Shown: in pieces, positions 3,628-14,662 of the stretch
Position numbering within the stretch: the first letter of the stretch is position 1
Layout: the number at the start of each line of letters is the position of its first letter
DNA from: a virus
Length of the DNA: 21,066 bases
Virus genome (UHGV): UHGV-0139471
Direction: 5' to 3' (one strand)
Made by a program: the position numbers and the translations under genes
Notes under the pieces: model-generated
What the model was told of the DNA's origin: nothing
Database searches by the model: none
Seen by the model: only the letters and a program-made list of their open reading frames with translations

Positions 3628-3837
3628 TCAAACTTTTTGTTCTTTAAGCTTGCTATACAGCTCCGGTTGGAAAACAAGTTTCCCATCGGTGCGGTACGCG
3701 GCTTCAGCAGCCCTCCCTTTTGGGATCAAGCGACCGGGTCTGTTCCGCCACTGATAAACAGCTTCGCTGGATATGCCAAAGAACTCGGCTACCTTCTCAG
3801 CGTTTCCAAAGTACTTTTCAACATCATCGGTGGTCAT
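3628..3837 (-). CDS. Cro-like HTH repressor
   Basis: 69 aa; HTH-like segment VAEFFGISSEAVYQWRN; GGAG Shine-Dalgarno 6 nt upstream; divergent from the cI-like gene across a 100-bp operator region. Confidence 0.7.
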   Translation of the reverse strand: MTTDDVEKYFGNAEKVAEFFGISSEAVYQWRNRPGRLIPKGRAAEAAYRTDGKLVFQPELYSKLKEQKV

Positions 3838-3851
3838 AATGGCTCCTTTAA

Positions 3852-3865
3852 CTAAGTTTGATTAG
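3852..3865. promoter_or_regulatory. operator-like palindrome CTAAGTTTGATTAG (OR-type site overlapping pR)
   Basis: 14-bp CTAAG-N5-TTAG inverted repeat just downstream of the predicted pR -10 element. Confidence 0.5.
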
Positions 3866-3894
3866 ATAATAATTACCAATCTATCTTTGGTCAA
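3866..3894 (-). promoter_or_regulatory. pR-like promoter for cro and the leftward early operon
   Basis: On the minus strand: -35 TTGACC (3894..3889), 17-bp spacer, -10 TATTAT (3871..3866). Confidence 0.5.
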
Positions 3895-3900
3895 TAAAAA

Positions 3901-3914
3901 CTAAGATTGCTTAG
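3901..3914. promoter_or_regulatory. operator-like palindrome CTAAGATTGCTTAG
   Basis: Near-perfect 14-bp inverted repeat (CTAAG-ATTG-CTTAG) 24 bp upstream of the cI-like start. Confidence 0.5.
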
Positions 3915-3937: not shown

Positions 3938-4564
3938 ATGGAAACTGTCGGACAACGAATAAAATCGCTTAGGCGAATCACCAGAACCTCACAAAAAGAG
4001 CTTGGGAAGTTTTGTGGGGTCAGTGATGTCGCAGTTGGGTATTGGGAAAAGGACGTAAACGTCCCAGGAGGGGAATCTCTTTCCAAACTAGCAAAATTCT
4101 TCAATACATCAATTGATTACATACTTTTTGGCACTGAGTTTGAGGGAAACTTAATAACTAAGATGCGAAAAGTTCCCGTGATATCGTGGGTGCAAGCAGG
4201 ATTATTCACTGAATCAAAGCCTGAAGATGTCTTGCATGATGCCGAAAAATGGGTGGAAACGTCTCTCCGCATCAGCGATAACTCGTTTGCCCTTGAAGTA
4301 AAGGGAGACTCAATGACAAATCCTAATGGACTGCCCACGATTCCTGAAGGCGCAACGGTCATCGTTGATCCAGACATTGAGCCAATTCATGGAAAGATTG
4401 TAGTTGCACGAATAGATGGGACCAACGAGGCCACGGTCAAAAAACTGGTTGTAGACGGTCCGCAAAAATTTCTTGTCCCGCTAAATCCCCGTTATCCTAA
4501 CATCGCCATCAATGGTAACTGCGTCATTATTGGTGTGGTTAAAGGCGTTCAATACGAGCTCTGA
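3938..4564 (+). CDS. cI-like prophage repressor (HTH plus S24 LexA-like autopeptidase domain)
   Basis: 208 aa; N-terminal HTH (QKELGKFCGVSDVAVGYWE); C-terminal Ser/Lys dyad context (GDSM ... TVKKL) typical of LexA/cI self-cleaving repressors; divergent from cro. Confidence 0.9.
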   Translation: METVGQRIKSLRRITRTSQKELGKFCGVSDVAVGYWEKDVNVPGGESLSKLAKFFNTSIDYILFGTEFEGNLITKMRKVPVISWVQAGLFTESKPEDVLHDAEKWVETSLRISDNSFALEVKGDSMTNPNGLPTIPEGATVIVDPDIEPIHGKIVVARIDGTNEATVKKLVVDGPQKFLVPLNPRYPNIAINGNCVIIGVVKGVQYEL

Positions 4565-4583
4565 TCTAAGCTAATCTCCCTTC

Positions 4584-4616
4584 GACACCAAGCTAAGAAA
4601 AGTTTGGTGTTTTTTC
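4584..4616 (+). terminator. rho-independent terminator-like hairpin after the cI-like gene
   Basis: Stem acaccaa (4585-4591) / ttggtgt (4604-4610), 12-nt loop, followed by TTTTT. Confidence 0.5.
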
Positions 4617-4645
4617 TTGACGACAAAACTAAGTTAAGTTAGATT
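4617..4645 (+). promoter_or_regulatory. pL-like promoter with overlapping operator (CTAAGTTAAGTTAG at 4629-4642)
   Basis: -35 TTGACG (4617-4622), 17-bp spacer, -10 TAGATT (4640-4645); the third CTAAG-N5-TTAG palindrome overlaps spacer and -10. Confidence 0.5.
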
Positions 4646-4749
4646 TTCATCTATCAACAGCGAAGAGGCAGGACGCCCACGAAGTAGCCGCCCGGGGCAT
4701 ATGAAGTCCGGGATGATTCGCTGACAGATAAACCAAATAGGAACAGATC

Positions 4750-4983
4750 ATGGCAAGCAAAGGCATTGAAAACCTTATCAAGGACGCATTAGCAAACGGC
4801 TGTCATGTAGTCCGTAAAGCGCATCGCTTCGAGGTAAGCAAGAAAGGCCAAAAATCAATCACTCTTATTATTTGTGAAGATGGCACAGCTTACCGGGGAG
4901 ATATTGACCTAACGATCGCCATAGCCATTCGCACTCAAAAAGAAATGCGCAGCATCCTCGGCCTGCCGGCCAAGGCAAGTTAA
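4750..4983 (+). CDS. hypothetical protein (77 aa); weak HicA-toxin-like resemblance
   Basis: AGGAAC Shine-Dalgarno 7 nt upstream; occupies the first position of the pL-side operon. Segment NGCHVVRKAHRFEV and C-terminal RSILGLP loosely resemble HicA (G-W-x-x-R-x-x-GSH ... ILKQAGL), but the GSH motif is not conserved. Confidence 0.5.
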   Translation: MASKGIENLIKDALANGCHVVRKAHRFEVSKKGQKSITLIICEDGTAYRGDIDLTIAIAIRTQKEMRSILGLPAKAS

Positions 4984-6100
4984 TTACCACAGGTATCTTC
5001 GGGAGGGGTTGCGAAGCTGGATTGACCACCAGCAACAGAAACTCACCCGACATACAGCAGCCGTTTAACCCACGGCGTCGGGGGTCCAGTAGACCTGGAT
5101 TAATACTGTAGGGGTTGTGCCGGTTGGTCGCCGGCGCCCCGCCCGAAGATACCTGAACGAACATGGCGAAGCCGACAGCGTTGAAGGCGATTTTCTCGGT
5201 TTGCGCGCTAAACAATAGCGGGGGTGAAATCGGGGCGGAGAAGCAGAATCCGCGATGTCGGGACTTGATACTTCCGGCCATACCAACAAGCCGAATGATC
5301 GCGTAACGATCCTTTGCATCTGCCCCGGCGAGGTGGCGCCGCCGGACCGGGGTAGATGAATCGTACACAACATGAAAGCGCATTCCATCTTCATCCGTCG
5401 TGGGGACTGGTTTGTAACTGAAGGAGTGCGCTTCCAGTTGTGAACGGCAATATTCACGACCGTTGTATGGCACATGCAGCGTTAGCAGCCCGGATGGTTC
5501 CCTTGAAGTTCCATGCGCTATCCGGACAACTGGAATGTGCAAGCTAAGTGTTTCAGGCACGACGTGCGCCCCACCAGCGCGGCGAAAAGGTGTGACGCCC
5601 GGGAAGAGTCCGGGACACAACGATGAGGGCATTGACGAGCAAGGCACAGAGTCTGGTTCGATTCCAGACGCCAGGATAGTTCTATATCTGGTGATGGGCA
5701 GGGAAAAGGTCCGTTCGATTCGGACACCGGCAGTGCTCTCTTCGTTGTGGTAATTGCGGCTATGCGCACGTGACGAGCCAAACCCGTTCAATGAATGCGT
5801 TTCCGGGCAGTGTACGTCGCCGGTTATGGCTTAACCCGGCAGGTGGAGGCACCACCGCCACAACCTAGTTAACTGTGCTGTGTGTAGTCTTGGCGGTTAT
5901 CCAGTTTTCCACTATCCAAAGGAGGAAGAGGATAACGTTCTGATGGATAACCGCCCTTTTTACACAATACACAAGAGCATCACCGGGCGACGGGCTCATA
6001 ACCCAATCCACCCGGGCGGCGTCCTAACCGCAGGTGCTCTTCTGTGTTGTGTACGGAGAAATTCCCGGCGGTGGCAGCCGCCTTTCGAGAGGGTAAAACC

Positions 6101-6472
6101 ATGAGTAATGATCGCATGACAGTCGTGCCCGATTTCCTGGGCGAACTGGACGCCGGCGTATTCATGAACAAGATTGCGGCGGCTCTGAATACCACCGCGC
6201 TCGGCGTTCTGAACAACGGCAACAAAGGCAAAGTAGTCCTGACCTTTGATTTTGAGCGTATGGGCAACTCTGTTGAAGAGAAGCGCGTCAAGATTAAGCA
6301 CAAGCTGAACTACAGCACCCCAACTCCCCGCGGCAAAGCGTCGGAAGAGGACACCACCGAAACACCAATGTGGGTCAATAAAGGCGGCAAGCTCACCATC
6401 CTGCAGGAGGATCAAGGGCAACTCTTCGGTATCACCGGCACGGTGGACGGAAAGCTTAAAGCGGCTCAGTGA
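6101..6472 (+). CDS. hypothetical prophage protein (YfdP-like by size and position)
   Basis: ATG at 6101 with GAGAGGG Shine-Dalgarno; 123 aa; first gene of a rightward operon whose next two genes match the YfdQ/YfdR pattern of E. coli CPS-53. Confidence 0.65.
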   Translation: MSNDRMTVVPDFLGELDAGVFMNKIAAALNTTALGVLNNGNKGKVVLTFDFERMGNSVEEKRVKIKHKLNYSTPTPRGKASEEDTTETPMWVNKGGKLTILQEDQGQLFGITGTVDGKLKAAQ

Positions 6473-6528
6473 TCCGCACGCACAAATTCACTGATACCAC
6501 TTCGCTAATCAGTTAATAAGGAATTTTT

Positions 6529-7356
6529 ATGTCTCAGTTAGACAGCGGTACTTTTCAGCAGGTTAAAGACCTGGTGCTTTCCGGTTATCACCTGAACGAT
6601 ATCCACGGTCTGGCCTGCCCGACCGCCCTGTTACCACAAAATACAAGCGTTGAAAGCCTGGAGCGTTTTTCTTATGAGCGCTTCCGTTTCCGTGGAGCCA
6701 TGGACACAACCAGTATTGATGATTTCGTTCGCTATTCTGTTGGTTATGCCCAGGAAGAAGAAAAAGCCCGCTGCTTTATCGATGCGAACAACATGCTGGC
6801 CCGTTCTATCTTCAATATCGGCACGCTGGATAACCCAGGTCATGCTGACAACGTCGCCTCGATCAAGCTAAAAAAGACAGCGCCCTTCCGCGCGTTACTG
6901 GCGATCAACGGCGATCACCTTAATCAGAAGCAAATCGCCGAATGGCTCGAAGACTGGAGCGACTATCTCACTGCGTTCGATGCTGACGGACAGACAATGA
7001 AAATTGCACAGGCAGCGCAGGCGGTTCGCCGTGTCACTATCCAGCAAACTAATGCCGCCGATCATGAAGACGGTGATTTCAGCGGCAAAAAATCACTGAT
7101 GCAAAGTATCGAAGCCAGCAGTAAAGATGTTATGCCGGTCGCTTTTGAATTTATGTGTGTACCGTATGAGGGCTTGGGCGAGCGTCGTTTCAGTCTGCGC
7201 AACAGTCTGCTGAAAAGTAGCGACCCGGTTTTCGTTCTGCGTATTGTCCAACTGGAGGCCCAGGAAGAAGCGATCGCCAATGAGTTCCGCGATCTGCTGG
7301 TTGGCAAGTTCGACGGCAAGCCGGTAGAAACCTTTATCGGCAACTTCAAAGCCTGA
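6529..7356 (+). CDS. DUF2303-type prophage protein (YfdQ-like)
   Basis: 275 aa, AAGGAA Shine-Dalgarno; size and neighbourhood (followed by an HD-domain gene) match YfdQ of CPS-53 from memory. Confidence 0.7.
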   Translation: MSQLDSGTFQQVKDLVLSGYHLNDIHGLACPTALLPQNTSVESLERFSYERFRFRGAMDTTSIDDFVRYSVGYAQEEEKARCFIDANNMLARSIFNIGTLDNPGHADNVASIKLKKTAPFRALLAINGDHLNQKQIAEWLEDWSDYLTAFDADGQTMKIAQAAQAVRRVTIQQTNAADHEDGDFSGKKSLMQSIEASSKDVMPVAFEFMCVPYEGLGERRFSLRNSLLKSSDPVFVLRIVQLEAQEEAIANEFRDLLVGKFDGKPVETFIGNFKA

Positions 7357-7368
7357 TTGCTCTCCATT

Positions 7369-7392
7369 AAATCCCCGTCGTTGCGGGGATTT
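7369..7392 (+). terminator. perfect 9-bp hairpin (aaatccccg / cggggattt), possible partial terminator or attenuator
   Basis: Inverted repeat with 6-nt loop immediately after the stop of the YfdQ-like gene; the downstream tract is only weakly U-rich. Confidence 0.3.
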
Positions 7393-7488
7393 ATTAAAGC
7401 GTAATCCTGCAATTAATCGCCACCTGGCGAGGGATTCCTACACACAAAAATCAGCGCTGTGCAGAGCGCAATTAAATGGAGAAATACG

Positions 7489-8016
7489 ATGAGCTTTATT
7501 CAAACCTTCACAGGCAAGCACTTTAACTATCTGGATATCCAGCTGGATGCCATTGAGATCGAAGATATCGCTAACGCGCTCTCGAATATTTGCCGCTTTG
7601 CTGGCCATCTTCCGGAGTTCTACAGCGTTGGTCAGCACAGCGTGTTAACCAGCCACCTGGTACCACAGGAGTTTGCGCTTGAAGCACTTCTGCACGATGC
7701 CGCAGAGGCTTATTTGCAGGATATTCCAGCACCGCTTAAACGCCTGCTCCCGGACTACCGCGCCATTGAGGATCGGGTTGATGCTGCAATACGTCAGAAA
7801 TTCGGCCTACCTGCTGAGCAGCACCCGACCGTTAAATATGCCGACCTGGTGATGTTGGCCAGCGAACGTCGTGACTTTGAGATCGACGACGGTACTGTCT
7901 GGCCCATGCTCGAAGGCATTATTCCAACGGATCAATTCGTTATTAATCCGGTTCGCCCAGGTCAGGCCTATGGGATGTTCATGAACCGATTCCACCAGCT
8001 GATGGAGCGGCGCTAA
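7489..8016 (+). CDS. HD-domain phosphohydrolase (YfdR-like 5'-deoxynucleotidase family)
   Basis: ATG at 7489 with GGAGA Shine-Dalgarno (track ORF starts at an upstream GTG); His ... HD motif context (SVGQHSVL ... LLHDAAEAY) typical of HD phosphohydrolases; 175 aa. Confidence 0.75.
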   Translation: MSFIQTFTGKHFNYLDIQLDAIEIEDIANALSNICRFAGHLPEFYSVGQHSVLTSHLVPQEFALEALLHDAAEAYLQDIPAPLKRLLPDYRAIEDRVDAAIRQKFGLPAEQHPTVKYADLVMLASERRDFEIDDGTVWPMLEGIIPTDQFVINPVRPGQAYGMFMNRFHQLMERR

Positions 8017-8216
8017 TGCCACATATGAAAGTTAAAGAACTGGTCGCTGCAGCTTACGCTGCGGCACCAGATCTACCACCGGAAGCGGCAGAGTTAATGC
8101 GCAATATTGCTTCACGACTGGATGTAACGTTCATCGCCCTTACCGAAGCAATGGACCAAAACACAGCGCAGGCTGCCGTGTTGGCAGTCCTGAATGGGGT
8201 TAAAAACAATGGCTAA
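8016..8216 (+). CDS. hypothetical protein (66 aa)
   Basis: ATG overlaps the stop of the HD gene (TAATG); Ala-rich helical-looking peptide. Confidence 0.45.
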   Translation: MPHMKVKELVAAAYAAAPDLPPEAAELMRNIASRLDVTFIALTEAMDQNTAQAAVLAVLNGVKNNG

Positions 8217-8994
8217 AAACTCGATCGACGTGTACGGCGCCAGCGGCAAAACCAACGCCCTGTCGTTCGAACCGGAAAAGCTGCATTTAGTCACCGATCA
8301 GACCCACCCTCTCTACGATGAGCGGGTCCACCTGCCGATCGACGAAGGGATGGTTCTGAACATCAAGGAGCTGGGTGTACTGGAGCCGATTATCGTCTGG
8401 AAAGACCCTGAAACAGGGCTCACCTGCGTGGTTGTAGGCCGTCAGCGCGTTAAACATACCCTGGAGGCAAATAAACTCCTTCTGAAAGAAGGCAAAGACC
8501 CACTGCTTGTTCCTGGGGTCGTTAAGCGCGGCTCAGCAAATCAGATGGCTAAATACATGGTCAGCGAAAATGAAATTCGCCGACCTGATACACCGCTCGG
8601 CCGGGCTAAAAAAATGTCAGACGCGCTCGACCGCGGTCTCGATGAGGACGATATTGCGGTGTTATTTGGCTGCAGCGTTCAGACCGTTCGTGCAACGCTG
8701 TCCCTTCTCGATGCCACCCAGGCCGTCCGGGAAGCGGTGGAGTCTGGCACTGTTACCGTTACCCAGGCACGTCAGCTTGGCACGCTTCCCCCGGAAGAGC
8801 AGCGGGAAAAAGTGAAAGAGATTGAATCTGCGACCGCTGGGACTACCGGCCATGAAAAAGCCAGGCGTCAGCGCGCCGTGCTTGGCGAAACTAAGTCACG
8901 TCTCAAATCACGCAAAGAAATCACAAAAGCCCTTGAAGCTGCCAGTGGTGAATATGCTGATGCACTGCGCTGGGTGCTCGGGGAGGTTGTATGA
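8194..8994 (+). CDS. ParB-like nuclease-domain protein
   Basis: 266 aa; N-terminal LEPIIVWKDPETGLTCVVVGRQRVKHTLEA resembles the ParB/Sulfiredoxin arginine-rich box; an alternative ATG at 8209 has a better-placed GGGG Shine-Dalgarno. Confidence 0.55.
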   Translation: MGLKTMAKNSIDVYGASGKTNALSFEPEKLHLVTDQTHPLYDERVHLPIDEGMVLNIKELGVLEPIIVWKDPETGLTCVVVGRQRVKHTLEANKLLLKEGKDPLLVPGVVKRGSANQMAKYMVSENEIRRPDTPLGRAKKMSDALDRGLDEDDIAVLFGCSVQTVRATLSLLDATQAVREAVESGTVTVTQARQLGTLPPEEQREKVKEIESATAGTTGHEKARRQRAVLGETKSRLKSRKEITKALEAASGEYADALRWVLGEVV

Positions 8995-9560
8995 ACATCT
9001 CAACAGTAAACGAGCTCATTCAGTCGCTGGAGAGTGCGGGCGAGCTGTCAATCAAAGAGCGTAAGTATCTGGAGTTGGCGAAAGCTTATCAGCAGCTGGC
9101 TGCGGAGAATGTGGCGCTGGCAGCAGAAAACAAAATGGCTGTTGATGCGGTAACGGTTTTCTCAAACGTCACCCACGATATCACCGACATCATCTGTGAT
9201 GAACTTGGGCATGACCGTGTGGCTGAAATTGTCGCGGCCTATAACGACCTCGGCAACATGCCCGCCACTGATCGCATCGTAGCCGGGATTAAGGCCAGAG
9301 TCATTCCTGAAGGCTTTAAGCTGGTACCTGAGCAGATGTATCTGTCAGACGAAGATATTCAGGCAATCTGCAGGCAGTGTGGCAATGGCGATAAAAAAGG
9401 CTATGGCGATTACGAAGATGGCATTCTGTGGGTTGGTGAACTGAGCAATGACGGCGAGATGAAATACGGCCTGAATATTGCGAATGCTAATTACCCTGAA
9501 GAGGGTTCAATCACTGTGTTTGAGTTTGATGAACCGCTGCGCGAGGGGGCCGACAAATGA
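8991..9560 (+). CDS. hypothetical protein (189 aa)
   Basis: ATGA overlap with the upstream gene; no family recognised. Confidence 0.6.
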   Translation: MNISTVNELIQSLESAGELSIKERKYLELAKAYQQLAAENVALAAENKMAVDAVTVFSNVTHDITDIICDELGHDRVAEIVAAYNDLGNMPATDRIVAGIKARVIPEGFKLVPEQMYLSDEDIQAICRQCGNGDKKGYGDYEDGILWVGELSNDGEMKYGLNIANANYPEEGSITVFEFDEPLREGADK

Positions 9561-10048
9561 GCAGCGGAATCGAACTTATGCAGCATGCTCTGGGTGTCAA
9601 TGAGCGCAATAGAACGCCGTACCGAAATTATTTCCTCGCCGGAGATGGTCATACGGACAACGAGGAGTGGGAAAAACTGGTTTCTGATGGTTTCGCTACC
9701 TCCCGGCCAGCGCCTGACTTTGCGGTTAGCGGAACGCTCTATCACGTCACAAATAAAGGCGAAGAATTAGCTATTGCTGCGCTACCTGAACCGAAGAAAA
9801 AGACGCGATACGAAGAATACCTCGACGCTGATAGTTGCCTGTCATTCGGTGAATGGCTGTTGGGTTACCAGCTTCCTGAGGTCGAATATGACCGTCATGG
9901 AAAATGCAGAATGTTCCGGTGCCAATACGATGAATCTTATGGCTACCCGCGTCGTGATATTCAGGGCGAGTGGTGCCCGACAAAGAAAGCAGCCAAAGCC
10001 AGCTACAAAGAAGCGCTGCGCAAGTCTAAACAGGAGCGTGCAGCATGA
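9557..10048 (+). CDS. hypothetical protein (163 aa)
   Basis: ATGA overlap with the upstream gene; no family recognised. Confidence 0.6.
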   Translation: MSSGIELMQHALGVNERNRTPYRNYFLAGDGHTDNEEWEKLVSDGFATSRPAPDFAVSGTLYHVTNKGEELAIAALPEPKKKTRYEEYLDADSCLSFGEWLLGYQLPEVEYDRHGKCRMFRCQYDESYGYPRRDIQGEWCPTKKAAKASYKEALRKSKQERAA

Positions 10049-10353
10049 CAACTGATATCACCGAACTGGCGCAAAGAGAGAAATTCGAAGCGTGGTGGGA
10101 GCGCGAGTATAAACATCTCGAATCCTCGAAATATACCGATGCTGTGCCGCATATCAAATACGGCTTCTGGATGGCATATCAGGCCGGTGGTGCTGAGCTG
10201 GTAGAGGCGCTGGAGAAGGCGCAGCGTGCCAATAACTCAGCACCAGCCATATTGCGCCAGCTTGCCGAAGAGAAACAGAAACGCGGAGAGGTGGCGGCAG
10301 CGACCGCCTTCAACTACGCAGCGTCAGCACTGCAAAAGGAGCTGTCGAAATGA
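10045..10353 (+). CDS. hypothetical protein (102 aa)
   Basis: ATGA overlap with the upstream gene; no family recognised. Confidence 0.55.
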   Translation: MTTDITELAQREKFEAWWEREYKHLESSKYTDAVPHIKYGFWMAYQAGGAELVEALEKAQRANNSAPAILRQLAEEKQKRGEVAAATAFNYAASALQKELSK

Positions 10354-10580
10354 CCAGACCAACTACTGCGCAACTAAACGCTGCCTATGACCAATTTAAT
10401 TTTTGGTACGACAAAGCCAAAAAGTTGGATGAAGAATTAGCGAAAGCAGAAGAGCGCATCGCCGAGCTGGAGTCCCGCACCGTGAAGCTGCCGCAAGCTG
10501 TTAGCGCAGGCGGTCAGGGTTATCAGGAACAAGTCGAGCGGATACTAACTGCCGCTGGCATCAAGTGGGAGGTTGAGTGA
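10350..10580 (+). CDS. hypothetical protein (76 aa, coiled-coil-like)
   Basis: ATGA overlap with the upstream gene. Confidence 0.5.
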   Translation: MTRPTTAQLNAAYDQFNFWYDKAKKLDEELAKAEERIAELESRTVKLPQAVSAGGQGYQEQVERILTAAGIKWEVE

Positions 10581-10876
10581 TGGCGACCAAAGCGCAATTG
10601 CAAGGCCAATGCACGCGGTTGGAAAACGAAAACCGGGAACTTAGTCGCCTTTTGGCAAGGGCTGAGCGTGAGCTTAACAACAGACTGCTGGATGAAGAGT
10701 TACCGCCCGAGGAAATCCCGTACCGCGTTACCTGCTTAATGAAGTATCACAGCATGCCGTGGGAAGTGTTCTGGTGTTCTGAGCACAAGCGATGGATGGA
10801 TGAGATGGATAGTAGTTTTCCGTACTCAATGAGCGATAACACTTGCCCTGTATGCCGAGATGAGGAGGGCCAATGA
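10577..10876 (+). CDS. hypothetical protein with putative zinc-ribbon (99 aa)
   Basis: Overlapping start; Cys/His pairs (CSEH ... CPVC) suggest a small zinc-binding element. Confidence 0.55.
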
Positions 10877-11304
10877 CCAGCAAATTAACCAGAGAGCCAA
10901 TCACTCACGAATTGAAAATTTACCCTGAATTCTTCTCTGCTGTTTGTACTGGCGTTAAACGCGCAGAGCTACGCAAAAATGACCGTGATTATCGGGTAGG
11001 CGACACTCTCCACCTGCTGGAGACACCGCGCGGTAGCTGTAACCCGACAGGTGAATACATCAATGTGATAATCACCCATATCGCTGACGTTGGTGAATGG
11101 ATGACGGGTTATGTCCTGCTGAGTGTTAAGCGGGAAACGGTGGGCAGCGAGCCGATAGTGATGGACGGACTCGTTAAAGCCGTAGAGTTCTATGAGCAGG
11201 TTAAACGCGAAAATCCGCCAGTCGAAACAGGCGCATGGAAAGATGCTGTTGATTGGGTGCTGAAGGAAGCCTGCCGCGCCGCCATGCTCCAGTTGAGAGG
11301 ATGA
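10873..11304 (+). CDS. DUF3850-like (ASCH/PUA-fold) protein
   Basis: 143 aa; N-terminal [33 protein letters not shown] matches the DUF3850 signature as I recall it (K-x-F-E-I-R-K-N-D-R-D-Y-x-V-G-D). Confidence 0.55.
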
Positions 11305-11308
11305 AGAG

Positions 11309-11512
11309 ATGACTATCAGGCGTAAAAGTGGACTTAAGACTGTTTTATTTTTCTTTATTTTGTTGGTTTTAGTGATTCCAGTTTCACCAATACTTCTTAT
11401 TTGTTTTATAGGTCAAAAGGCTGATATTTTTCTAGGATTGTACGATAGTATGCTTCTTAGCCAAATCAGTCGCCTACATGACAAGATAAATCCTTATGAG
11501 GCGCGTGACTGA
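11309..11512 (+). CDS. small membrane protein (67 aa)
   Basis: GAGAGGA Shine-Dalgarno; one long hydrophobic segment (VLFFFILLVLVIPVSPILLICFI); first gene of an A+T-rich module. Confidence 0.45.
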   Translation: MTIRRKSGLKTVLFFFILLVLVIPVSPILLICFIGQKADIFLGLYDSMLLSQISRLHDKINPYEARD

Positions 11513-11655
11513 TGAAAACCGTAAAAGAAAATCCAGACGCCACTAATTATCGTGGTTTTTGGCGTGTAACCGTGTGGGCTTGTTTATTCTGTGTAATATT
11601 TTTCTGGTTGCCCGCTATTTCAGTAACCATTTATTACTTTTCCTCGGGGAGTTAA
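11512..11655 (+). CDS. very small membrane protein (47 aa)
   Basis: Below the track cutoff. ATG overlaps the upstream stop (TGATG) and its TAA overlaps the next ATG (TAATG); translation MKTVKENPDATNYRGFWRVTVWACLFCVIFFWLPAISVTIYYFSSGS has one hydrophobic helix. The competing frame is the 11559 TTG-start track ORF. Confidence 0.3.
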   Translation: MKTVKENPDATNYRGFWRVTVWACLFCVIFFWLPAISVTIYYFSSGS

Positions 11656-11912
11656 TGCGCCGTTACATCATTACCGATAAAGACATTATCGATGCTTTCC
11701 AGAGATGGTCTAGCCCTGAATTAAAAAACCAGAAAATGCATACCAGCTTCATACGTGAAGCTGTATGCCGCGCACATCCTGACAAGGTGATTCTTCAGTA
11801 TGACGTTCGCCAAAAGCTAAAGAATATGGCCTCGCGTGGTTTAGTTACTGAGGTGCGTTTAAGTCCTAACGCAACAGCCTGGATGATAATAAAAGGTGAT
11901 TCAAATGGATAA
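11655..11912 (+). CDS. hypothetical protein (85 aa)
   Basis: ATG at 11655 preceded by GGGGAG; the track ORF starts further upstream at a TTG. Confidence 0.45.
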   Translation: MRRYIITDKDIIDAFQRWSSPELKNQKMHTSFIREAVCRAHPDKVILQYDVRQKLKNMASRGLVTEVRLSPNATAWMIIKGDSNG

Positions 11913-12276
11913 AATTAAGACCAAAAGAAGCGAGCGCCGTTTGTCGCGTGACCTGATAGAGGAAGGGTTAAGGCTGGTGGCAGAACGTAGCGAGCGGGAA
12001 GGAGTGAACAAAGATACCGCTAAACGTCATGCTTCAGCCATCAGAGGAGTGATTCCGGCGCTGGGTGTAGTAAAGAGTAAGGTTGTGAAGCCGGGGGTTT
12101 GGGTTTCGCTTTATACCCGCAGCGATGCTACATCGACCGTCATCAGCAATATGAAGTTTACCGCCGTCATATTTGAGTGGGCCGGACAGCAGGAGTATGA
12201 AGATTCGGCATTTTACGCCGCTATCGCTTGTGCTATCAGAACTGCACTGTCTGTGCGTGGTGAAGTGAGGGGTTAG
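11905..12276 (+). CDS. hypothetical protein (123 aa)
   Basis: ATG at 11905 with AAGGTGA Shine-Dalgarno; overlaps the upstream stop by 8 nt. Confidence 0.5.
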   Translation: MDKIKTKRSERRLSRDLIEEGLRLVAERSEREGVNKDTAKRHASAIRGVIPALGVVKSKVVKPGVWVSLYTRSDATSTVISNMKFTAVIFEWAGQQEYEDSAFYAAIACAIRTALSVRGEVRG

Positions 12277-12277
12277 A

Positions 12278-12445
12278 ATGAACTTGGTTTTCTCTCTCAT
12301 TTTTTTAACGGGCTGCATACTGCTTGGCAGTATTTCTGTTTTTTTGTGGGGTGATGGTCGCAGGAAACTTAGCGTTGCATTTGCACTATTGGTTTTGATG
12401 TATGCATTTGCAGCCTGTATAAATTTATTTTCGGGGAGGTTGTGA
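12278..12445 (+). CDS. very small membrane protein (55 aa, two hydrophobic segments)
   Basis: Below the track cutoff. ATG 2 nt after the upstream stop, GAGGGG upstream; MNLVFSLIFLTGCILLGSISVFLWGDGRRKLSVAFALLVLMYAFAACINLFSGRL; TGA overlaps the recombinase ATG (TGATG). Confidence 0.35.
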   Translation: MNLVFSLIFLTGCILLGSISVFLWGDGRRKLSVAFALLVLMYAFAACINLFSGRL

Positions 12446-13323
12446 TGTTAAGCGATCTTCTTATCATGGTTGACCGCCGTGCTCAGGCGGTCAGTTTGCG
12501 CGAAAAAACAATTATTAACGAACGTCACGCCGTCCGTATGCTGGAGCCTGTTTTATCTCTTGGGGTACGCGCTGCGAGCGTACCTGATACATGGGTAAGA
12601 TACGCCGACCGTTGCATTGATAATGGGCTGGCGGCGTCTACGGTTCGCCAGCGCATCGATTGCGTTGCGGCGGTTGTAGCCTGGGTAATTCATGCTGATA
12701 TTAAATTCAAACCAGCCGCGCCGGGCTCTCTGAGCAGGATGCTTGATGCCATGCGTACAGCGGCAAGAGCTATAGGCAAGCGGATAAAGCGTCACAGGGC
12801 ATTGAGCAGGCCAGCCCGTGTAAGTGTTGACGAGTATTCTACGGTAGTGCGGGATATTGAGTCTTTACGGGATCCATACAGGGCCGCAGCCCGTATGATG
12901 CTGTGTTTTGGAATGAGGGCAACAGAAACGCTTTCACTGTCTCCATCATCAATTCTTTCAGGTGGGAAGTTGTTTGTTCCTGACCGGGAGACTAAAAATC
13001 ACTCCGATTTGCTTTTACCTTTGCCAATTAAATACATTCCTTTAATCGAGGAGTGGCTAAGCGTGATAGGTGAGTCAGAAATAAAGTACAACACGCTTGT
13101 AACGACGATTTCCCGCGCCGGGATTAAATGGCGCTGCCATGATTTAAGAAAATTATTCAGAACTTCCGCCGCCGTGCGTGGTGAGGATTATCTTGCAACA
13201 GAATTGATATTAAATCACGCAGTGAAGGACGTTCCGAGCGTTTACTTACAATCTCCACCGTTTGCGGCAATGAGGCGAGTTTTAAACAATTCGATTGAAG
13301 AATATTTACAGGTTAAAGGGTAG
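12445..13323 (+). CDS. divergent tyrosine recombinase (integrase/invertase family)
   Basis: About 292 aa; GGGGAGG Shine-Dalgarno 5 nt upstream of ATG 12445; catalytic-residue pattern readable: Arg (GMRATETL), H-x-x-R (CHDLRKLF), downstream His and Tyr (ILNH ... SVYLQ). Short for a phage integrase; no obvious arm-binding N-domain. Confidence 0.65.
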   Translation: MLSDLLIMVDRRAQAVSLREKTIINERHAVRMLEPVLSLGVRAASVPDTWVRYADRCIDNGLAASTVRQRIDCVAAVVAWVIHADIKFKPAAPGSLSRMLDAMRTAARAIGKRIKRHRALSRPARVSVDEYSTVVRDIESLRDPYRAAARMMLCFGMRATETLSLSPSSILSGGKLFVPDRETKNHSDLLLPLPIKYIPLIEEWLSVIGESEIKYNTLVTTISRAGIKWRCHDLRKLFRTSAAVRGEDYLATELILNHAVKDVPSVYLQSPPFAAMRRVLNNSIEEYLQVKG

Positions 13324-13326
13324 GGA

Positions 13327-13584
13327 ATGGAAAAATCAGCGATTAAAGATAATGATATTATGTATCAAAAGAAGTATCCGAGAGATTGTTTGTTTAAATT
13401 GCTTCAACTACGCACTAATTTAAAAGCGAAGCCAGATATTTACCGGATAGAAATGATTAACCGCAGCGGTGATAAGATTTTGATGGGAGGGCGGCAAACA
13501 ACACAGGAGGCGATTTCTCTTTATCAGGATATTGCGACACTTAGCCCGTCAGAAGTGGAGGCGGCATTCAGTAGCATGGTCTAA
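13327..13584 (+). CDS. hypothetical protein (85 aa)
   Basis: Immediately follows the recombinase; followed by a strong terminator. Confidence 0.5.
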   Translation: MEKSAIKDNDIMYQKKYPRDCLFKLLQLRTNLKAKPDIYRIEMINRSGDKILMGGRQTTQEAISLYQDIATLSPSEVEAAFSSMV

Positions 13585-13603
13585 GAGCAGACCACAAAAA
13601 CGA

Positions 13604-13628
13604 GCCCGGCATCTGCCGGGTTTTTTTA
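13604..13628 (+). terminator. rho-independent terminator
   Basis: GC stem cccgg / ccggg (13605-13620) followed by TTTTTTT (13621-13627). Confidence 0.65.
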
Positions 13629-14662
13629 TGCCTGAACATTGCATCACAAATAATGTAAGTAAAAAGTTAAATATCGATTAACACAAAAGCAACATAATAC
13701 ACGTTAAATCATGTGACGGGATTGTTAAATGTATGTTGTGTGGATAATTTTATAAGCATCATGAAATGATGGTTAAGTAAATGATTGAAGTCTCGTTTTA
13801 TGCAAAATAACCAAAAATAAATTTAACCTATAAAATTCAGTGAATTATGTAATTTTGATTGTTTTTCATTCAAAAGTGACTCGATTTTTGGCGTCAATAC
13901 CTTGCATTTTTGCGCTGAGGAAAAATAAAAATAATTAAGTGAAATATTCATTAATTTAATCAATAGGTTATAGTTGTGAGGCAAACGGATGTATAAGGTT
14001 TGACATTCAGTGTCAGCACGAGTAAAAGACCAAAAAGAGGGCAATTAAAGCCATTTTATTTAAAAATGTTTCCACTTGAAATAAAGCCGGACATTTACCA
14101 CCTTACCTATAGCTATACGAATCAATAAGCTATGTTATTTTTCGTGGTGTTTACTGTTTTATTCGCCGGAAATGTTTCTGTAATCTCATCTGACCAGTGC
14201 GTTTAGCATCTTGACATGAGTTTGTTATGAGTTAGCAGAAAGGGGGAAAGCATAAGCATGTGGGGTGGCGGAAAAGATAAAATCGCGCTCAGGCTTGTTT
14301 CCACCAGCGATTGCAGGAATCTATCACTTTTCACTGATGTTTGATAACGGTTAAATATTTGACCGTTCAATTATGTTTGCTCTGTTACATATTCATTGCG
14401 TTAAAAATGAGCATAACAAAAGCAACAAATATCAAACATTCATGTTGGCACGTTAAATGTTATCCATATTGAAAGTGAGTAGTGATGCGTGGTTGGGGCG
14501 ATATTGACCACTAACTTAAATCGTGCAGGTGGGTAGTTTCATGCTGCTTATCCACAGATTTAGCCTTGTGCGTAATATTGACACGTATTACCGCTGGAGC
14601 CGTTTCTGTAATTAGTCAGGCCATTGCCTTTAAATCACCTCTATATAAAGGAGGTGAACTTC

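Follow-up and report, generated by a model that had tools for sequence, protein, structure and literature searches.

Positions 6101 to 11304 of the virus genome UHGV-0139471 raise a simple question: do eleven consecutive + strand genes form one system, or were they brought together piece by piece in the early operon of a phage? Throughout, the window is the whole stretch of 21,066 nucleotides (nt) that was analysed. The region is probably the central stretch of a CI-repressed early-left (PL-type) operon, made of exchangeable cassettes and belonging to an ST64B/LLS-like lambdoid temperate phage of Klebsiella/Raoultella. The anatomy of the operon, the homologies, the mosaicism, the linkage of YfdP to YfdQ and the RNA hairpins are matters of observation. 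The eleven genes, numbered G1 to G11, are as follows, with lengths in amino acids (aa).

6101..6472, + strand: G1, YfdP homologue, 123 aa
6529..7356, + strand: G2, YfdQ / DUF2303, 275 aa
7489..8016, + strand: G3, YfdR-type HD-domain phosphohydrolase, 175 aa
8016..8216, + strand: G4, 66-aa protein accompanying ParB; phrog_12248
8209..8994, + strand: G5, orphan ParB/Spo0J-like protein with a ParB N-terminal fold and a helix-turn-helix (HTH)
8991..9560, + strand: G6, 189 aa, a coiled-coil N-terminal half and an unrelated C-terminal half; phrog_10746, phrog_492
9557..10048, + strand: G7, 163 aa; phrog_21796, phrog_13561, phrog_2730
10045..10353, + strand: G8, 102 aa, ead/Ea22-like N-terminal piece; phrog_1138 positions 1-85
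10350..10580, + strand: G9, 76 aa, ead/Ea22-like C-terminal piece; phrog_1138 positions 121-209
10577..10876, + strand: G10, 99 aa, GTG start, coiled coil and zinc-knuckle-like motif; phrog_3797, 2e-34
10873..11304, + strand: G11, DUF3850/ASCH (PUA-like) domain and an Ea22-type C-terminal tail

All eleven match PHROG families (E <= 2e-8), which marks them as real, conserved phage genes and bears out the original prediction, made from the sequence alone, of eleven consecutive + strand genes at 6101-11304; the 66-aa G4 (8016-8216) was a gene that it left unmentioned. Its remark that some of the products belong to no recognisable family is true of Pfam and of NCBIfam (from which nothing useful came for eight of the ten proteins scanned), and is not true of PHROGs, where G8 and G9 are ead/Ea22-like pieces. 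Far from assigning routine functions to all members, the profile searches left most of them without an assigned function. Overlapping start and stop codons, which had been claimed throughout, are present at eight of the ten junctions. The spacings, in order, are +56 (yfdP/yfdQ), +132 (yfdQ/yfdR), -1 and -8, followed by six overlaps of -4 (ATGA/GTGA), so that the first two junctions are open gaps. A GGAG/GAGG-type sequence, resembling a Shine-Dalgarno (SD) site, lies ahead of each downstream start. Nor does the coupled chain stop at 11304, where the operon had been thought to end; it goes on to the integrase and an 85-aa gene, with overlaps or gaps of no more than 5 nt. Tight ATGA coupling of this kind is an ordinary style in phage early operons.

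The whole operon is about 9 kb long and runs from the promoter through a structured leader to the integrase and a terminator-like hairpin, with the following landmarks around the eleven genes.

3628-3837, - strand: P22-type Cro gene
3938-4564, + strand: gene for a CI-like HTH/S24 repressor
4584..4611, + strand: intrinsic-terminator-like hairpin at the end of the CI repressor transcript, an 11-bp stem then a T run, directly 3' of the CI-like gene
4617..4645, + strand: PL-like sigma-70 promoter, TTGACG-17-TAGATT (promoter scan)
4750..4983, + strand: first operon gene, 77 aa; phrog_12911, E 8e-37; present in 12 of 80 related loci
4984..6100, + strand: leader of ~1.1 kb with discrete structured modules
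7357..7488, + strand: spacer between yfdQ and yfdR, in which three hairpins are conserved, the first an inverted repeat at about 7355-7406
11309..13584, + strand: distal coupled part, with a DUF4014 gene (PF13198), four small genes, the tyrosine integrase gene at 12442-13323 (PF00589) and the 85-aa gene; none of these genes found in the 80 related loci
13602..13623, + strand: strong intrinsic-terminator-like hairpin at the operon end, a 9-bp stem, 6 of its pairs GC, followed by a T run

The cro and CI-like genes flank a divergent control region, with replication-type genes and a Dam methylase further along the - strand. An operator-like palindrome, CTAAG-N4-GTTAG (4627-4642), sits inside the spacer of the PL-like promoter, and two copies of a CTAAG-N4-CTTAG type motif occur in the cro/cI intergenic region (3851-3866 and 3899-3914). 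This operator motif, common to the PL-like promoter and the cro/cI region in the classical OL/PL and OR/PR arrangement, places 6101-11304 in the middle of a CI-controlled early-left operon. The genes also lie on the same strand 3' of the repressor gene, behind a promoter under an operator shared with PR/PRM, and int stands at the end, as in lambdoid early-left operons generally. To have called this an early operon of mostly uncharacterised proteins was therefore sound, given the CI-like gene and operator-overlapped promoter ahead of it and the integrase at its end. No N-like protein was found, and no Rfam family matched. Most related loci conserve, at 76-95%, the ~80 nt that follow the PL-like -10 element (4646-4727), whatever comes next; this is the position held by putL in HK022. 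A put-like pair found no support here, the segment having no similar copy downstream of PR and an ordinary fold (z -1.07). The closest DNA relative is Klebsiella phage Kp4866-6, at 90-93% identity. Salmonella ST64B, Citrobacter phiNP and E. coli LLS have 76-78% DNA identity over yfdP-yfdQ-yfdR in the same place behind the CI repressor, but differ in the genes downstream of yfdR.

How far the eleven genes travel together was seen in a sample of 80 viral contigs that encode YfdQ at 84-100% identity, each checked for the window proteins, which were present as follows.

YfdP in 79 of 80 loci, YfdQ in 80 of 80, YfdR in 79 of 80
G4 in 56 of 80 loci, the ParB-like G5 in 34 of 80
G6 in 12 of 80 loci, at about 45% identity
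G8 in 4 of 80 loci, G9 in 5 of 80, G11 in 1 of 80
G7, G10 and every gene from 11309 onward in 0 of 80 loci

This uneven presence, and the occurrence of the G4/ParB cassette elsewhere, mean that the operon is a patchwork and not one eleven-protein system. A cassette patchwork is typical for this part of lambdoid genomes. The opposite idea, that all eleven genes are one co-adapted multi-protein system, would account for the translational coupling, with its six consecutive ATGA/GTGA overlaps and two further overlaps, and the fusion of a ParB fold to DUF3850 in other phages could hint at a partnership between G5 and G11. It is extremely improbable, however, since among the 80 relatives G7 and G10 never appear, G11 does so once and G6 only in 12 as a distant version, while two junctions are uncoupled and one of them holds a terminator-like element. 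The G5-G11 partnership is a weak lead: a single one of the 34 ParB loci holds any part of G11, and this is the Ea22-type tail (L004) and not the DUF3850 domain, the locus with DUF3850 (L030) having no ParB.

At the head of the eleven genes stand yfdP and yfdQ. That the first three products follow YfdP, YfdQ and YfdR of the E. coli prophage CPS-53 (KplE1) in order and size, as first proposed, was confirmed by BLASTP, with full-length identities of 59/56/66% and the same order. G1 is 59% identical to K-12 YfdP over 122 aa and was placed through homology and its position 5' of yfdQ; its homologues carry a precomputed assignment to PF27127, the YfdP family of newer Pfam. G2, at 56% identity to K-12 YfdQ over the full length, matches DUF2303 (PF10065) with 212.9 bits against a cut-off of 26.6 (residues 31-273), and is 93-95% identical to proteins of Klebsiella michiganensis, K. 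oxytoca, K. pneumoniae and Raoultella. The gene spacing is also that of CPS-53, with a structured yfdQ-yfdR spacer of ~130 nt here and 127 nt in K-12. The likeness to yfdPQRST as a whole ends with yfdR: YfdS, YfdT and TorI have no homologues in the window (BLASTP and TBLASTN, E < 0.1), and the G4+ParB and Ea22-like genes follow instead. A TBLASTN search of 50,697 phage records recovered YfdQ in 181 and YfdP in 180, with breakdowns by organism name that nearly coincide, among them the following.

Escherichia (as the first word of the organism name): YfdQ in 53 records, YfdP in 52
Stx2a-converting: YfdQ in 26 records, YfdP in 26
Stx2c-converting: YfdQ in 15 records, YfdP in 15
Xanthomonas: YfdQ in 15 records, YfdP in 15
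Vibrio: YfdQ in 32 records, YfdP in 27
Pseudomonas: YfdQ in 5 records, YfdP in 5

In four of four distant phages (Pseudomonas pAN, Vibrio 24E35.2, Vibrio 1.232.O and Xanthomonas CP2) a YfdP homologue lies directly 5' of yfdQ (phmmer, 4e-26 to 1e-10). In phages of Escherichia, Vibrio, Pseudomonas and Xanthomonas alike, YfdP and YfdQ stand next to each other as an obligate pair, and YfdR is optional. A search of viral contigs with one distant YfdQ representative gave no match. The neighbours of the pair in the distant phages are genes for a DnaQ-like exonuclease, a single-stranded DNA-binding protein, Erf, Rad52 and an exonuclease, which make up an early DNA-metabolism region, and the best-supported account is that YfdP and YfdQ act as an inseparable pair in DNA metabolism.

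At 50% identity the YfdQ family falls into 1,358 clusters, all of them about 270 aa long, and the best 150 include no fusions. Its near-invariant residues are H105 in a PGHxD(H) motif, E141-D142-W143, R55, R167 and R224. The AlphaFold2 model of YfdQ, built on an alignment of 143 diverse homologues, has a predicted local distance difference test score of 92.5 and gave no significant Foldseek match against the PDB (in fold libraries without 9o7m); YfdP likewise yielded a confident model that matched no known fold, and its PDB sequence search was empty. By sequence, YfdQ does match one PDB entry, 9o7m, titled 'YfdQ protein' (profile E 1.4e-86; 132.9 bits for the window protein). The entry holds 36 chains of one 274-aa sequence, a distant homologue and not K-12 YfdQ, and so many chains suggest a large YfdQ assembly. 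No paper citing or describing 9o7m was found in the searchable literature.

Could the pair, with or without YfdR, be an unrecognised DNA recombination, repair or replication-accessory module that replaces a missing Rec module? The whole window contains 11 Chi sites (GCTGGTGG) against 0.69 expected, a count reached in 0 of 100 shuffles, and eight of the 11 are on the - strand. No exo, bet, erf or gam gene was found in the early-left operon within the window. This combination would fit the 'LLS functional type' described in PMC12315714, that is, Chi-rich lambdoid phages that lack a Rec module, and it would leave a place that YfdP-YfdQ could fill. The pair sits in the slot held by RdgC in related Klebsiella phages, its neighbours in distant phages are those just named, and a large YfdQ oligomer, as the 36 chains of 9o7m suggest, would be of the sort that annealing proteins form. 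In E. coli, moreover, deletion of yfdQ raises sensitivity to methyl methanesulfonate and H2O2, as cited in PMC4776307. Nevertheless, we hold a recombination module to be improbable, since YfdP-YfdQ coexists with Rec modules or annealing proteins in other phages. According to PMC12315714, lambdoid early-left operons often carry genes of the yfdP/Q/R types, yfdP and yfdQ are of unknown function, and a concealed role in recombination is unlikely for such genes, which occur alongside complete Rec modules, as in ArgO145. The same coexistence is seen here in CP2, which has Erf and an exonuclease beside YfdP-YfdQ, and in Vibrio 1.232.O, which has Rad52.

The third gene of the trio has its own distribution. 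G3 is 66% identical over the full length to K-12 YfdR, which is annotated as a 5'-deoxynucleotidase (RefSeq product name). It matches phrog_318, 'deoxyribonucleoside 5' monophosphate phosphatase' (2e-97), and the HD protein of PDB 2gz4 (1.6e-11), and the H...HD...D residues can be read in GQH, LLHDAAE and YADL. G3 is an HD protein of the YfdR branch and not a YfbR equivalog. YfdR-like proteins occur in 320 phage records with a spread other than that of YfdPQ, reaching also Bacillus, Caulobacter, Rhizobium and jumbo phages. Among the four distant YfdPQ phages only pAN has YfdR, three genes downstream of yfdQ, and the Stx2a-converting phages, with 26 YfdPQ-bearing records, are not among the ten commonest organism names with YfdR. 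In two IMG/VR contigs (L109 and L166) a YfdR homologue and G4 come directly after the leader core with no yfdP or yfdQ, an arrangement which implies that YfdR can be used without YfdP-YfdQ.

Experimental work on this family comes from Noguchi and Katayama (PMC4776307), who reported that extra copies of yfdQRS or yfdQRT inhibit initiation at oriC in E. coli. Purified YfdR binds domain I of DnaA in a Phe46-dependent manner and competes moderately with DiaA and DnaB; YfdQ, YfdS and YfdT showed no strong binding, and deletion was without phenotype in normal growth. By homology to E. coli YfdR, the Klebsiella-phage protein most likely dephosphorylates 5'-deoxynucleoside monophosphates (dNMPs) and binds DnaA domain I. 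The binding of DnaA by YfdR, with the inhibition of initiation by the extra copies, is also what outside support there is for the suggestion that these genes serve host takeover, and it applies to this one member.

The next two genes, G4 and G5, form an independent cassette, separate from YfdR. Of the 79 related loci with YfdR, 45 have no ParB, and G4+ParB follows RdgC, or the leader directly, in Klebsiella phages and E. coli prophages without YfdPQR. G5 is 90% identical to the ParB of Klebsiella phage KpF5, and G4 is 36% identical to the small gene ahead of it. KpF5, P7641 and ST147-VIM1phi7.2 have parts of the leader, the small protein, ParB and the gene style in common with this phage, but carry RdgC where it has YfdP-YfdQ-YfdR. 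The function that had been derived from an HD nucleotidase standing beside a ParB-like nuclease thus loses its footing, since G3 and G5 belong to separate cassettes.

What G5 might do is suggested by its fold. Its ParB-like identity, already recognised in the original prediction, is seen in matches to HTH_ParB (PF17762, 42.5 bits, cut-off 22.6) and to PDB chains of Spo0J/Noc/ParB, with an alignment to Thermus Spo0J (1vz0, residues 51-226, 6e-8) across the N-terminal ParB fold and the HTH. The label of a nuclease finds no support: G5 has no sign of nuclease activity, and its fold is like that of DNA-binding CTP switches. It is conceivable that G5 is a true partition protein and that the phage persists as a plasmid prophage, and the Spo0J-type HTH and N-terminal domain would suit such a role. 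This is highly implausible, however, as no ParA was hit among the scanned window proteins, no repeated palindromic centromere-like (parS) sites were found in 4500-13700, and the gene lies inside a repressed lytic operon that contains an integrase. Furthermore, TIGR00180 scores below its cut-off (32.7 against 58.45 bits), PF02195 was not reported at E <= 0.01, and box II aligns as GRQRVKH against GERRxRA in ParB, with one of the two arginines retained. The most likely role for G5 is that of a DNA-binding protein switched by nucleotides, with phage or host DNA as its target, and not that of a partition protein. Orphan ParB-fold proteins are enriched on prophages, and their fold can bind CTP, ATP or GTP and is often fused to DUF3850 in phages (bioRxiv 10.1101/2025.10.10.680097). 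G5 resembles the orphan prophage proteins of the ParB-CTPase fold in its N-terminal fold and HTH, the lack of ParA, and the presence of DUF3850 in the same operon. It differs from the fusions in that ParB and DUF3850 are separate here, five genes apart and not co-varying, and in its GRQR box II.

Beyond ParB, G6-G11 are probably accessory genes of the Ea22/ead type, a variable series in which every gene is put together from shuffled domains. G6 and G7 had no PDB sequence match and no Pfam or NCBIfam match of note. The two halves of G6 occur separately in other loci, as do the N-domain of G11 (L030) and its tail (L004), and in L033, L037 and L038 a single frame holds the N-terminal part of G8 together with the C-terminal part of G9. 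The counterpart of 10045-10580 in other phages is a single ead/Ea22-like open reading frame (ORF) of ~190 aa; here the middle is replaced and the frame is split at an ATGA overlap. RefSeq labels the homologous E. coli stretch of G8-G9 'ead/Ea22-like'. The lambda ea22/b-region is alike in its small coiled-coil proteins with shuffled N/C domains between the recombination slot and xis/int, and Ea22-type membership here is by PHROG families and the RefSeq naming of homologues, not by lambda Ea22 itself.

The zinc-ribbon-like Cys/His pattern that had been noticed in one of these proteins is conserved in the homologues of G10. In its motif C67-x2-H70...C90-x2-C93 the three cysteines are invariant and H70 is kept by 12 of 13 homologues, while C53 is variable; a coiled-coil segment is invariant as well. 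The conserved motif supports the earlier guess that G10 may bind zinc. G10 has only 12 homologue clusters among 5.8 billion proteins. Two of its NCBI homologues, from Erwinia aphidicola and Pantoea coffeiphila, are named 'antitoxin PHD', a label that finds no support in the sequence, which has no Pfam hit and instead a coiled coil and a zinc-knuckle-like motif. For G11, the DUF3850-like identity proposed at the outset was upheld by PF12961 (67.2 bits, cut-off 22.9), by ASCH (23.1 against 21.2 bits) and by the ASCH structure 3iuw (5.8e-8). The ASCH signature is GxKxxExR, and G11 reads GVKRAELR. G11 is a putative RNA binder of the ASCH/PUA-like type.

Counter-defence is a further alternative. 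In this account, for instance, YfdR would degrade signal or modified nucleotides, YfdP-YfdQ would sequester or block an immune effector of the host, and ParB and the ASCH protein would mask phage DNA or RNA. Early expression, a fast turnover of cassettes and a spread over unrelated phages are typical of anti-defence loci, and a large YfdQ assembly is compatible with a sponge or cage. Anti-defence or phage-host roles have also been suggested for prophage-enriched ParB-CTPase fusions, for example those with DUF3850 or a methyltransferase (bioRxiv 10.1101/2025.10.10.680097). PADLOC, however, recovered 0 families at E <= 0.01 from ten of the eleven proteins (all but G9), its models being built for defence systems and not for anti-defence proteins, and what experiments there are on the family point to DnaA and replication. 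Counter-defence as the common purpose of the cassettes appears distinctly improbable.

The early-left operon is marked not only by its proteins but also by its RNA. The 132-nt gap between yfdQ and yfdR folds into three hairpins (fold z -3.74), and the same three are present in K-12 despite a different sequence. For the first hairpin, 56 unique sequences display compensatory pairs: AU in 45 and UA in 11 at one position, CG in 44, GC in 11 and AU in 1 at another, and GC in 31 and AU in 24 at a third. This hairpin, whose GC-rich stem stands between a run of A and a run of U, resembles a leaky or bidirectional intrinsic terminator.

The leader at 4984-6100 contains no credible ORF and has no Rfam match. 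It folds much more stably than shuffled sequences, with minimum free energy (MFE) z values of -5.66 (4985-5160) and -6.41 (5355-6062). Across the 80 related loci its modules have sharp edges and occur in varying combinations, at 4989-5156, 5160-5365, 5365-5442, 5442-5621/5637, 5610-5750/5776, 5731/5744-5894, 5950-6082 and 6033-6110. These modules may be new structured RNAs that control the early-left transcript. The module at 4990-5155, 166 nt long with an MFE of -83.1 kcal/mol, has a 19-nt inverted repeat (95% complementary) as its closing stem. Among 17 homologues, five of its 45 predicted pairs have compensatory double changes, one P1 pair is seen as GU, GC and AU, and one internal hairpin is wholly deleted in three sequences. 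It holds a Chi site on the - strand (5026-5033). An ORF at 5943-6104 shares an ATGA overlap with the yfdP start; since it is broken or truncated in most related loci, it was not accepted as a gene.

A core of ~90 nt within the leader, at 5538-5625, is at least 93% identical in 70 unique viral sequences while its flanks diverge, and it is 82% identical in a Stenotrophomonas phage. It carries a Chi site at 5571-5578 (- strand). No convincing consensus structure was found for it on either strand, and a class of variants with a 1-nt deletion argues against coding. The exact sequence of a 17-nt marker from the core recurs in 84 IMG/VR contigs, and in 53 of these it lies between a CI-like gene and the first early-left gene (YfdP, RdgC, ParB or YfdR), where either was recognised. 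In nine only a ParB-like gene was recognised, ~5.9 kb upstream and on the opposite strand; the other 22 offer no neighbour that is recognisable or informative. A longer piece of the leader, 5466-5750 (L090 2501-2854), is 75% identical to an unannotated segment in the unrelated Salmonella phages SPN1S and SPC32N (Uetakevirus), where it lies amid structural genes and ends 4 nt inside an annotated tRNA-Arg gene. The window leader has two T-arm-like hairpins, GGTTCGATTCC and GTCCGTTCGATTCGGAC. A tRNA at 5598-5733 was not accepted, as ARAGORN called none by default and gave weak calls (5598-5676 and 5651-5733) only at 80% of its threshold.

A bolder account takes YfdP-YfdQ as a two-protein device with unique folds, in which YfdQ forms a very large homo-oligomer. 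The device would be expressed first from PL, insulated by a conserved RNA element from the genes after it, and used for an undescribed step of host takeover or counter-defence, such as a block of DnaA/DnaB at oriC together with YfdR or the caging of a host nuclease. We consider this unlikely. In a linked possibility, mobile structured RNAs of new types would make up the 1.1 kb leader as an array and steer read-through of the whole operon.

Several observations concern the far end of the operon. From 11300 to 14600 the GC content falls from about 0.52 to 0.36-0.46. The integrase is short, at 293 aa, with a borderline Pfam score (27.6 against 27.1). Baseplate-type genes lie beyond 14624 on the same strand, and the phage looks intact. 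The attachment site is presumably within 13624-14600.

Returning to the reading of 6101-11304 as the middle of a CI-repressed early-left operon, the course of events would be as follows. Once the repressor is inactivated, transcription would start at the operator-covered promoter (4617-4645), cross the 77-aa gene and the ~1.1 kb structured leader, and pass through yfdP-yfdQ. The transcript would then meet the three-hairpin, terminator-like spacer and continue via yfdR and the ATGA-coupled genes to the integrase. On each next small gene the ribosome would re-initiate, for which the geometry and the SD-like sequences are in place, the actual coupling being what we infer from them. At least three independently exchangeable cassettes would be expressed in this way: YfdP-YfdQ, joined here to YfdR; G4+ParB; and G6-G11. 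The YfdR cassette most likely acts on host replication initiation and/or on dNMPs, and would damp host oriC initiation early in lytic growth. We infer every biochemical activity proposed here.

A number of points weigh against this reading. The promoter and the terminator-like hairpin, like the coupling, are predictions from the nucleotide sequence. Fold searches with the models shed no light on what YfdP and YfdQ may do. G3 scores below the cut-offs for the YfbR-type 5'-deoxynucleotidase (PF12917, 21.1 against 25.9 bits; NF003009, 17.2 against 122), and a dNMP phosphatase would bring no evident gain to a replicating phage. The effect in E. coli required YfdS or YfdT, neither of which is in the window. 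The authors of that study themselves noted that the phenotype seen on over-expression could be artefactual, and stable binding of YfdQ to YfdR or to DnaA was not found by them (PMC4776307).

Descriptions already exist of the gene types, of the order in which they stand and of where they lie in lambdoid genomes, and the region is a routine lambdoid early-left operon that changes no picture. What is new is the quantified finding that YfdP-YfdQ is obligate and YfdR optional, the absence of any known fold matched for the pair, the independent G4+ParB cassette and the conserved RNA hairpins. Testable candidates for the control of a 9 kb early transcript, in a phage in which no N-like protein was found, are the modules of the leader and the spacer. 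With about 180 sequenced phages, YfdP-YfdQ is among the commoner early cassettes in phages of Proteobacteria, and an obligate pair with an optional YfdR tells experimenters which genes to test jointly. The main question that the locus poses for the biology of these phages is the role of this widespread pair.

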